Source of the DNA: Shigella phage sb1
Sequence record: PQ666539
Direction: 5' to 3' (one strand)
DNA: 64,000 nt
Shown: positions 58,601-59,476 of the stretch, piece by piece
Layout: each line of letters starts with the position of its first letter
Position numbering within the stretch: the first letter of the stretch is position 1
Position numbers and translations under genes: made by a program
The notes under the pieces: generated by a model
Database searches by the model: none
What the model was told of the DNA's origin: nothing
Seen by the model: only the letters and a program-made list of their open reading frames with translations

Positions 58601-59476
58601 TCTCAGCGTAATAAAGCTGGAAATATAACATTTAATATCAACGGTACAGTAACTCCGATAAATGTTAATGCTTCAGGAACATTGAATGCGAATGGCGTTG
58701 CTACATTTGGTAATTCAGTCACGGCAACTGGTGAAATTATTTCTCGAAGCGCAAATGCTTTCCGTTCTATTAATGGAAATTACGGTTTCATTATTCGTAA
58801 TGACGGGTCAGTAACGAATTTTATGCTTACTGCATCGGGCGATCAGACTGGTGGATTTAATGGATTACGTCCATTAACTATTAATAATGCATCTGGTCAA
58901 GTAACGATTGGTGAAAGCTTAATCATCGCCAAAGGTGCTACTATAAATTCAGGTGGTTTGACTGTTAACTCGAGAATTCGTTCTCAGGGTACTAAAACAT
59001 CTGATTTATATACCCGTGCTCCAACATCTGATACTGTAGGATTCTGGTCAATCGATATTAATGATTCAGCCACTTATAACCATTTCCCGGGTTATTTTGA
59101 AATGGTTGAAAAAACTAATGAAGTGACTGGACTTCCATACTTAGAACGTGGCGAATAAGTTAAATCTCCTGGTACGTTAACTCAGTTTGGTAACACGCTT
59201 GATTCGCTTTATCAAGATTGGATTACTTATCCAACGACCCCAGAAGCGCGCACCACTCGCTGGACACGCACATGGCAAAAAACAAAAAACTCGTGGTCGA
59301 GTTTTTTTCAGGTATTTGATGGAGGTAACCCTCCTCAGCCGTCTGATATCGGTGCTTTACCATCTGATAATGCTATAATAGGTAATCTTACTATTCGTGA
59401 TTTCTTACGAATTGGTAATGTTAGCATTATTCATGACCCAGTGAATAAAACTGTTAAATTTGAATGGGTTGAATAA
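55607..59476 (+). CDS. 34: Long tail fibre proximal subunit gp34; expected ATG is CTG (55607-55609); interrupted by in-frame TAA at 56717-56719, 56786-56788, 57647-57649 and 59156-59158
   Basis: One frame reads LAEIKRKFRAEDGLDAGGDKIINVALADR... through three track ORFs (269, 236 and 386 aa) and unlisted gaps; span about 1289 codons, as T4 gp34. Confidence 0.85.

Follow-up and report, generated by a model that had tools for sequence, protein, structure and literature searches.

The fourth in-frame stop of gene 34 in a T4-like phage sequence most likely belongs to a window-wide, unselected G:C>T:A layer of artefactual origin

Introduction

Conditional-lethal nonsense mutants of bacteriophage T4, either amber or ochre, are classically known in the long-tail-fibre genes 34-38; the genome of such a mutant is intact except for one or a few defined stops. 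In-frame stops are also met in phages that have reassigned TAG or TGA, where one stop codon stands for one amino acid and the other codons end the genes. Within the long tail fibre, the C-terminal region of gp34 is the end of the proximal half-fibre that adjoins gp35 (PMC5537660). As regards sequencing errors, Costello et al. (2013; PMC3616734) described a C>A/G>T artefact attributed to 8-oxoG; its allele fraction is low, it is tied to read orientation, and CCG>CAG is its dominant change.

Here, we examined an in-frame TAA in the gene 34 homologue of Shigella phage sb1 (PQ666539). The window, i.e., the whole 64-kb stretch of DNA that was analysed, is a Tequatrovirus segment running from gp15 to codon 890 of gp37. 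A sequence-only reading had proceeded gene by gene, so that the window-wide layer behind the gene 34 stop was not visible to it.

Results

The window appears to be a segment of an unsampled Tequatrovirus lineage

Shigella phage pSs-1 and the whole window form one collinear alignment of 64,048 columns with 95.7% identity, and the window is 96-97% identical to Escherichia phage Ec_YwIITB1; the gene order is collinear with that of pSs-1, YwIITB1 and T4. The underlying genome appears to be that of an unsampled Tequatrovirus lineage, and beneath the G:C>T:A layer described below it is an ordinary member of the genus, not present in the collections searched and with nearest neighbours at ~96-97% identity. 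No protein on record is identical to the product of rnh, gp24 or a 78-aa ORF. A 152-aa ORF exactly matched Shigella phage Sfk20 only, which reflects ordinary mosaicism; at 94.5% identity to the window, Sfk20 is not its parent.

Four patches of 40 nt (41258-41297, 49629-49668, 55900-55939 and 63061-63100) each show 11-13 differences from both references, mostly not G>T, and look like mosaic recombination tracts from unsampled Tequatrovirus lineages. The window-specific 40-mers of two of them (41258-41297 and 55900-55939) had no exact match in IMG/VR. The td gene (49329-50189, 861 nt) and nrdB (45277-46455, 1179 nt) are continuous, with lengths as in pSs-1, and no Rfam family reached threshold in the window, group I introns included. 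Unlike T4, the interval between genes 32 and 59 (53237-53340) contains no segG homing-endonuclease gene. The leader of gene 32 (minus strand) has one UUAAA repeat more than in pSs-1 and YwIITB1, owing to a TTTAA insertion of 5 nt at 53249-53253, upstream of the gene; the repeat number is thereby that of T4, which looks like natural variation. The conserved leader segment just upstream has a G>T change (CATAGCACC > CATATCACC). It should be noted that the YwIITB1 record (PQ356294.1) may have quality problems of its own. Its major capsid protein and hoc are each annotated as two CDSs, two hypothetical-protein CDSs stand where pSs-1 has a single nrdB, and it carries three lineage-specific nonsense changes.

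Codon 1184 of gene 34 is a glutamate codon with its first base recorded as T

The gene 34 homologue (long tail fibre proximal subunit) occupies 55607-59476 on the plus strand, with 1289 codons plus a stop. Its position is T4-type, with rnh in the opposite orientation on one side and genes 35-36-37 on the other, and by megablast the region falls between ribonuclease H and gene 35 of Tequatrovirus genomes, with 93-95% identity. The alignment of the gene to the references covers 3869 of its 3870 nt, with a nucleotide identity to T4, pSs-1 and YwIITB1 of 90-95%. Moreover, the C-terminal 359 aa match the T4 gp34 structures 4UXE, 5NXF, 5NXH and 9X3R with E values of ~1e-205 (1.2e-205 for 4UXE).

A T4-type gene 34 has an intact frame of ~1289 codons that starts with ATG, and this is not what the window holds. 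The first codon (55607-55609) is CTG, an A>C change from the ATG found in 7/7 references, and the frame contains TAA at codons 371 (56717-56719, TCA>TAA via C>A), 394 (56786-56788, GAA>TAA), 681 (57647-57649, GAA>TAA) and 1184 (59156-59158), all on the plus strand. At each of the first three sites the original codon (TCA, GAA and GAA, respectively) is present in 7/7 references. At the fourth, the window reads GGC GAA TAA GTT AAA at 59150-59164, followed by TCT, and GAA (Glu) has become TAA via G>T at 59156. Sequence and frame thus agree with the sequence-only reading, which had listed this TAA as the fourth of four (after those at 56717, 56786 and 57647).

That reading had also proposed GAA as the original codon and an alignment to T4 gp34 as the check. 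We aligned gene 34 with seven references (T4, pSs-1, YwIITB1, three IMG/VR contigs and one metagenome contig), and a Glu codon was found at codon 1184 in all seven, the site being equivalent to E1184 of T4 gp34. All 13 relatives examined have Glu there; the codon is GAA in T4, YwIITB1, four contigs of IMG/VR and five metagenome contigs, and GAG in pSs-1. Given that the relatives have a Glu codon at this position, the GAA>TAA change is confirmed, and the TAA at 59156 is a Glu codon with its first base recorded as T. A sense codon in the references had been put forward as grounds for rejecting the premature stop; this logic is inverted, as a sense codon there confirms it.

The T variant was then sought in sequence collections using a pattern in which the variable base at 59156 was replaced by N. 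All of its matches, four contigs in IMG/VR and five among the metagenome contigs, have G. The T variant was not found by this search in IMG/VR, metagenome contigs or GTDB genome contigs, and the genome contigs gave no match at all to the N-pattern. The 81 nt around the site matched 251 GenBank phage records; the T variant was absent from these, and none was identical to the window (best, 98.8%).

Downstream of the internal stop the frame stays open to the natural stop at 59474-59476, as had been claimed, and its translation is recognisable throughout as T4-type gp34. The last 105 codons are a nearly residue-for-residue match to T4 gp34, and the unique changes outside the G>T/C>A class located there are all synonymous (9/9). 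Together, the open, conserved frame and these synonymous changes indicate that this stretch evolved as translated sequence. The natural stop and the internal one at 59156 share the tetranucleotide TAAG, and gene 35 starts with ATG at 59485.

The gene as a whole carries 61 changes unique to the window. G>T and C>A account for 26 of these (4 nonsense, 18 missense and 4 synonymous), and several of the missense changes fall on glycines present in 7/7 references, whereas 28 of the 35 unique changes outside this class (80%) are synonymous. Read literally, the stop at codon 1184 would cut gp34 at residue 1183 and remove the last 106 residues, which form the end meeting gp35 and the distal half-fibre. 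Since the gene already has no ATG and is already stopped at codon 371, no separate functional meaning can be given to the stop at 59156.

Premature stops and lost starts are spread across the window

To take the census of stops, the pSs-1 gene annotation was mapped onto the window. We found 33 in-frame stops in 23 genes, 32 of which arose from G>T or C>A. They lie in gp16, gp17 (2), gp18, gp22 (2), gp23, uvsW.1, uvsY, gp51, gp27 (2), gp29, gp48, alt, alc (2), rnlA (3), nrdA (2, adjacent), gp32, gp34 (4), gp35, gp36 and four small ORFs, and the genes affected include those for terminase, sheath, major capsid, baseplate and gp32. The changes were 18 GAA>TAA, 4 GGA>TGA, 3 GAG>TAG, 4 TCA>TAA, 3 TAC>TAA and 1 TTA>TAA, giving 26 TAA, 4 TGA and 3 TAG.

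The tail-fibre genes do not stand apart in this respect. Gene 34 has 147 stop-capable G/C sites, so that 2.1 stops are expected at a rate of 1.42% and four were seen (Poisson P(>=4) = 0.16); it is not enriched in stops beyond the window-wide rate. For gene 35, 0.7 stops were expected and one was seen (codon 209, GAA>TAA, 60109-60111, plus strand); for gene 36, 0.33 were expected and one was seen (codon 190, TCA>TAA, 61230-61232, plus strand); for the gp37 fragment, 1.2 were expected and none was seen. The stops in genes 35 and 36 come from the same G:C>T:A process. An inactivation specific to gene 34 was considered and is ruled out by the window-wide stops and by this lack of enrichment.

Start codons are affected as well, with three ATG>ATT changes (G>T) in gp15 (575-577) and in two minus-strand small ORFs (39516-39752 and 40614-40743). 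In nrdA, codons 124-125 (48397-48402, minus strand) form a TAA TAA pair through two adjacent GAA>TAA changes, and pairs of G:C>T:A changes less than 10 nt apart are somewhat commoner than expected (30 seen vs 17 expected).

Some changes are of another kind. Codon 274 of gp23 is a stop through TTA>TAA, and the stop codon of gp51 has become CAA (TAA>CAA, at about 22053-22055). The ATG>CTG change of gene 34 is likewise outside the G>T class and suggests a minor general error component. As these three changes look unselected, the process is not purely G>T, and a minor general error component beside the G>T layer is likely.

The G:C>T:A changes are in excess and show no sign of selection

Changes were polarised with two references, a change being private to the window when both references agree and the window differs. 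Out of 1306 such changes, 333 are G:C>T:A (167 G>T and 166 C>A), against 46 (31+15) and 98 (51+47) on the two reference lineages. The layer extends over the whole window (1-64000), and about 265 of the 333 private substitutions are in excess.

A random expectation was then computed from all the G>T and C>A changes that the inferred ancestral coding sequence could undergo. The coding private G:C>T:A changes comprise 32 nonsense, 220-221 missense and 38-39 synonymous, vs 34.6, 230.8 and 25.6 expected, respectively. These numbers are near those for random placement, indicating that stops arise at the rate that holds without any selection, and the slight synonymous excess is what a natural background of G>T/C>A changes would add. 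Over the codon positions, the same changes are distributed evenly (111/96/84). The other private changes behave as in normal divergence: those outside G:C>T:A are ~80% synonymous, and private transitions are synonymous in 501 cases vs 111 missense (82%), with 479 of 613 at codon position 3.

The rate of G:C>T:A is 1.42% at coding-strand G, 1.45% at coding-strand C and 1.16% at non-coding G/C, and the order in which G>T and C>A follow each other in the window is random (runs test, z = -1.15). No trinucleotide preference was detected (chi-square p = 0.35), no base preference was seen at positions -8 to +8 around the sites, and there was no homopolymer effect. In the CCG context, 14 of 716 sites were changed (1.96% vs 1.44% overall), which is not a significant enrichment. 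Three indels are private to the window; all are intergenic and none lies in coding DNA.

Several technical sources were considered on these grounds. Nanopore miscalls, or miscalls at modified bases (glucosyl-hmC), are unlikely, as there is neither a -8 to +8 context, nor a homopolymer effect, nor coding indels. RNA-derived or transcription-strand damage is ruled out by the equal rates at coding-strand G and C (1.42% vs 1.45%), and errors stemming from single reads or strands are ruled out by the random interleaving of G>T and C>A. Overall, the lack of indels, context dependence and strand asymmetry argues against long-read or modified-base miscalls, RNA-derived damage and neutral decay.

Discussion

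The stop at 59156 is very probably a random strike of a window-wide, unselected G:C>T:A layer, itself most likely a data-quality artefact. This layer is uniform, context-free and strand-symmetric and affects ~1.4% of G:C pairs; the Tequatrovirus genome beneath it is novel and otherwise normal. Given that it was never filtered by selection, the layer cannot have been passed on through viable phage generations and most likely arose after the DNA left the living phage. Moreover, with such a load of stops in the capsid, terminase, sheath, baseplate and gp32 genes, the genome could not be propagated.

From the substitution itself, its uniqueness, the window-wide spectrum and its neutrality, all of which are observed, we infer a technical or artificial origin. 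The spectrum says guanine-specific damage or error. A candidate source would be 8-oxoG-like oxidative damage, or another G>T-specific error, which may have been fixed in a consensus of low depth, from a single molecule, or with all variants applied; alternatively, the record could have been altered deliberately or in silico. Against an artefact, in our own judgement, ~1.4% of G:C pairs is far above the damage expected from library preparation. A clean parent genome for direct comparison with the window was not found in the collections searched.

Among the other readings, the one that survives best, although it is unlikely, places real changes on a dead DNA molecule: massive oxidative (8-oxoG-type) damage or mutagenesis, either in vivo or environmental, that gave G:C>T:A on a molecule captured by single-molecule or single-virus amplification, so that the TAA would be physical and yet never expressed in a viable phage. 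The nearly pure, strand-symmetric and unselected spectrum is what would be seen if lesions on either strand of the duplex had been fixed, and the absence of coding indels fits as well. However, the changes show no preference for sequence context, to have 1.4% of all G:C pairs changed is extreme, and the sequence by itself does not separate such a molecule from a library or consensus artefact. A related proposal, in which a T4-like genome undergoes extreme, guanine-selective oxidation or mutagenesis, e.g., by an unrecognised host or environmental process, and is then sequenced from a single molecule, so that the window would document natural G>T 'hypermutation' of phage DNA, seems less probable by about half.

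A genuine ochre (TAA) mutation in a tail-fibre-defective or suppressor-dependent laboratory strain is more improbable still. The change is indeed a single-base, sense-to-stop one in a tail-fibre gene, and stops are clustered in genes 34, 35 and 36. Nevertheless, TAA, TAG and TGA stops occur in 20 other genes, including those for the major capsid protein, terminase, sheath and gp32, the four stops of gene 34 do not exceed chance (2.1 expected, P = 0.16), missense changes of the same class are present at the neutral rate, and gene 34 has lost its ATG as well.

We give very little credence to a stop that is read through, whether by reassignment of TAA, by suppression (e.g., by a phage suppressor tRNA) or by programmed read-through, with full-length gp34 being made: the frame is open and conserved down to the natural stop, but all three stop codons occur in frame, replacing Glu, Gly, Ser, Tyr and Leu codons, TAA, TAG and TGA also serve as the natural gene ends (the gene 34 terminator has the same TAA-G context as the internal stop), the 64-kb window contains no tRNA gene and no Rfam hit, and unselected missense changes accompany the stops. 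An old pseudogene, in which gene 34 decays because long tail fibres are no longer needed, is just as hard to credit: four stops and a lost start codon would suit it, but neutral decay relaxes constraint in all classes, indels included, whereas the unique non-G>T changes are 28/35 synonymous in the gene and 9/9 downstream of the stop, transitions are 82% synonymous, coding indels are absent and essential genes elsewhere bear the same load.

If the stop is a strike of the G:C>T:A layer, its practical value is that of a quality flag, and it says nothing on tail-fibre function, recoding or pseudogenisation. The in-frame stops, the lost starts and odd replacements such as Gly>Val, Asp>Tyr and Ser>Tyr in the window should all be taken as belonging to one G:C>T:A layer, and the other in-frame stops seen in genes of the window share the same explanation.

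Compared with T4 gp34 (NP_049860), the window copy shares the locus order rnh, 34, 35, 36, 37 and the length of 1289 codons, with 90% nucleotide identity and a C-terminal match at E = 1e-205, and differs from it in the CTG start, the four TAAs and the 18 unique G>T/C>A missense changes. The classical T4 mutants resemble the window in having a single-base sense-to-stop change in gene 34, which alone would truncate gp34 before its gp35-proximal end; their stops are confined to one or a few genes, whereas the window has 33 stops in 23 genes and ~220 unselected missense changes. With recoded phages the window has in common in-frame stops in conserved structural genes with an open frame downstream. 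In reassignment, one type of stop serves one amino acid and is unused at gene ends, whereas here TAA, TAG and TGA stand in frame for five amino acids and also end genes. The closest likeness in spectrum is to the 8-oxoG artefact, in that the window has almost only G:C>T:A in excess (333 vs 46 and 98), unselected and with a non-biological distribution; the window differs in that its changes are at consensus level, context-free and at ~1.4% of G:C pairs, and the CCG>CAG preference of that artefact is not seen (14/716; trinucleotide p = 0.35).
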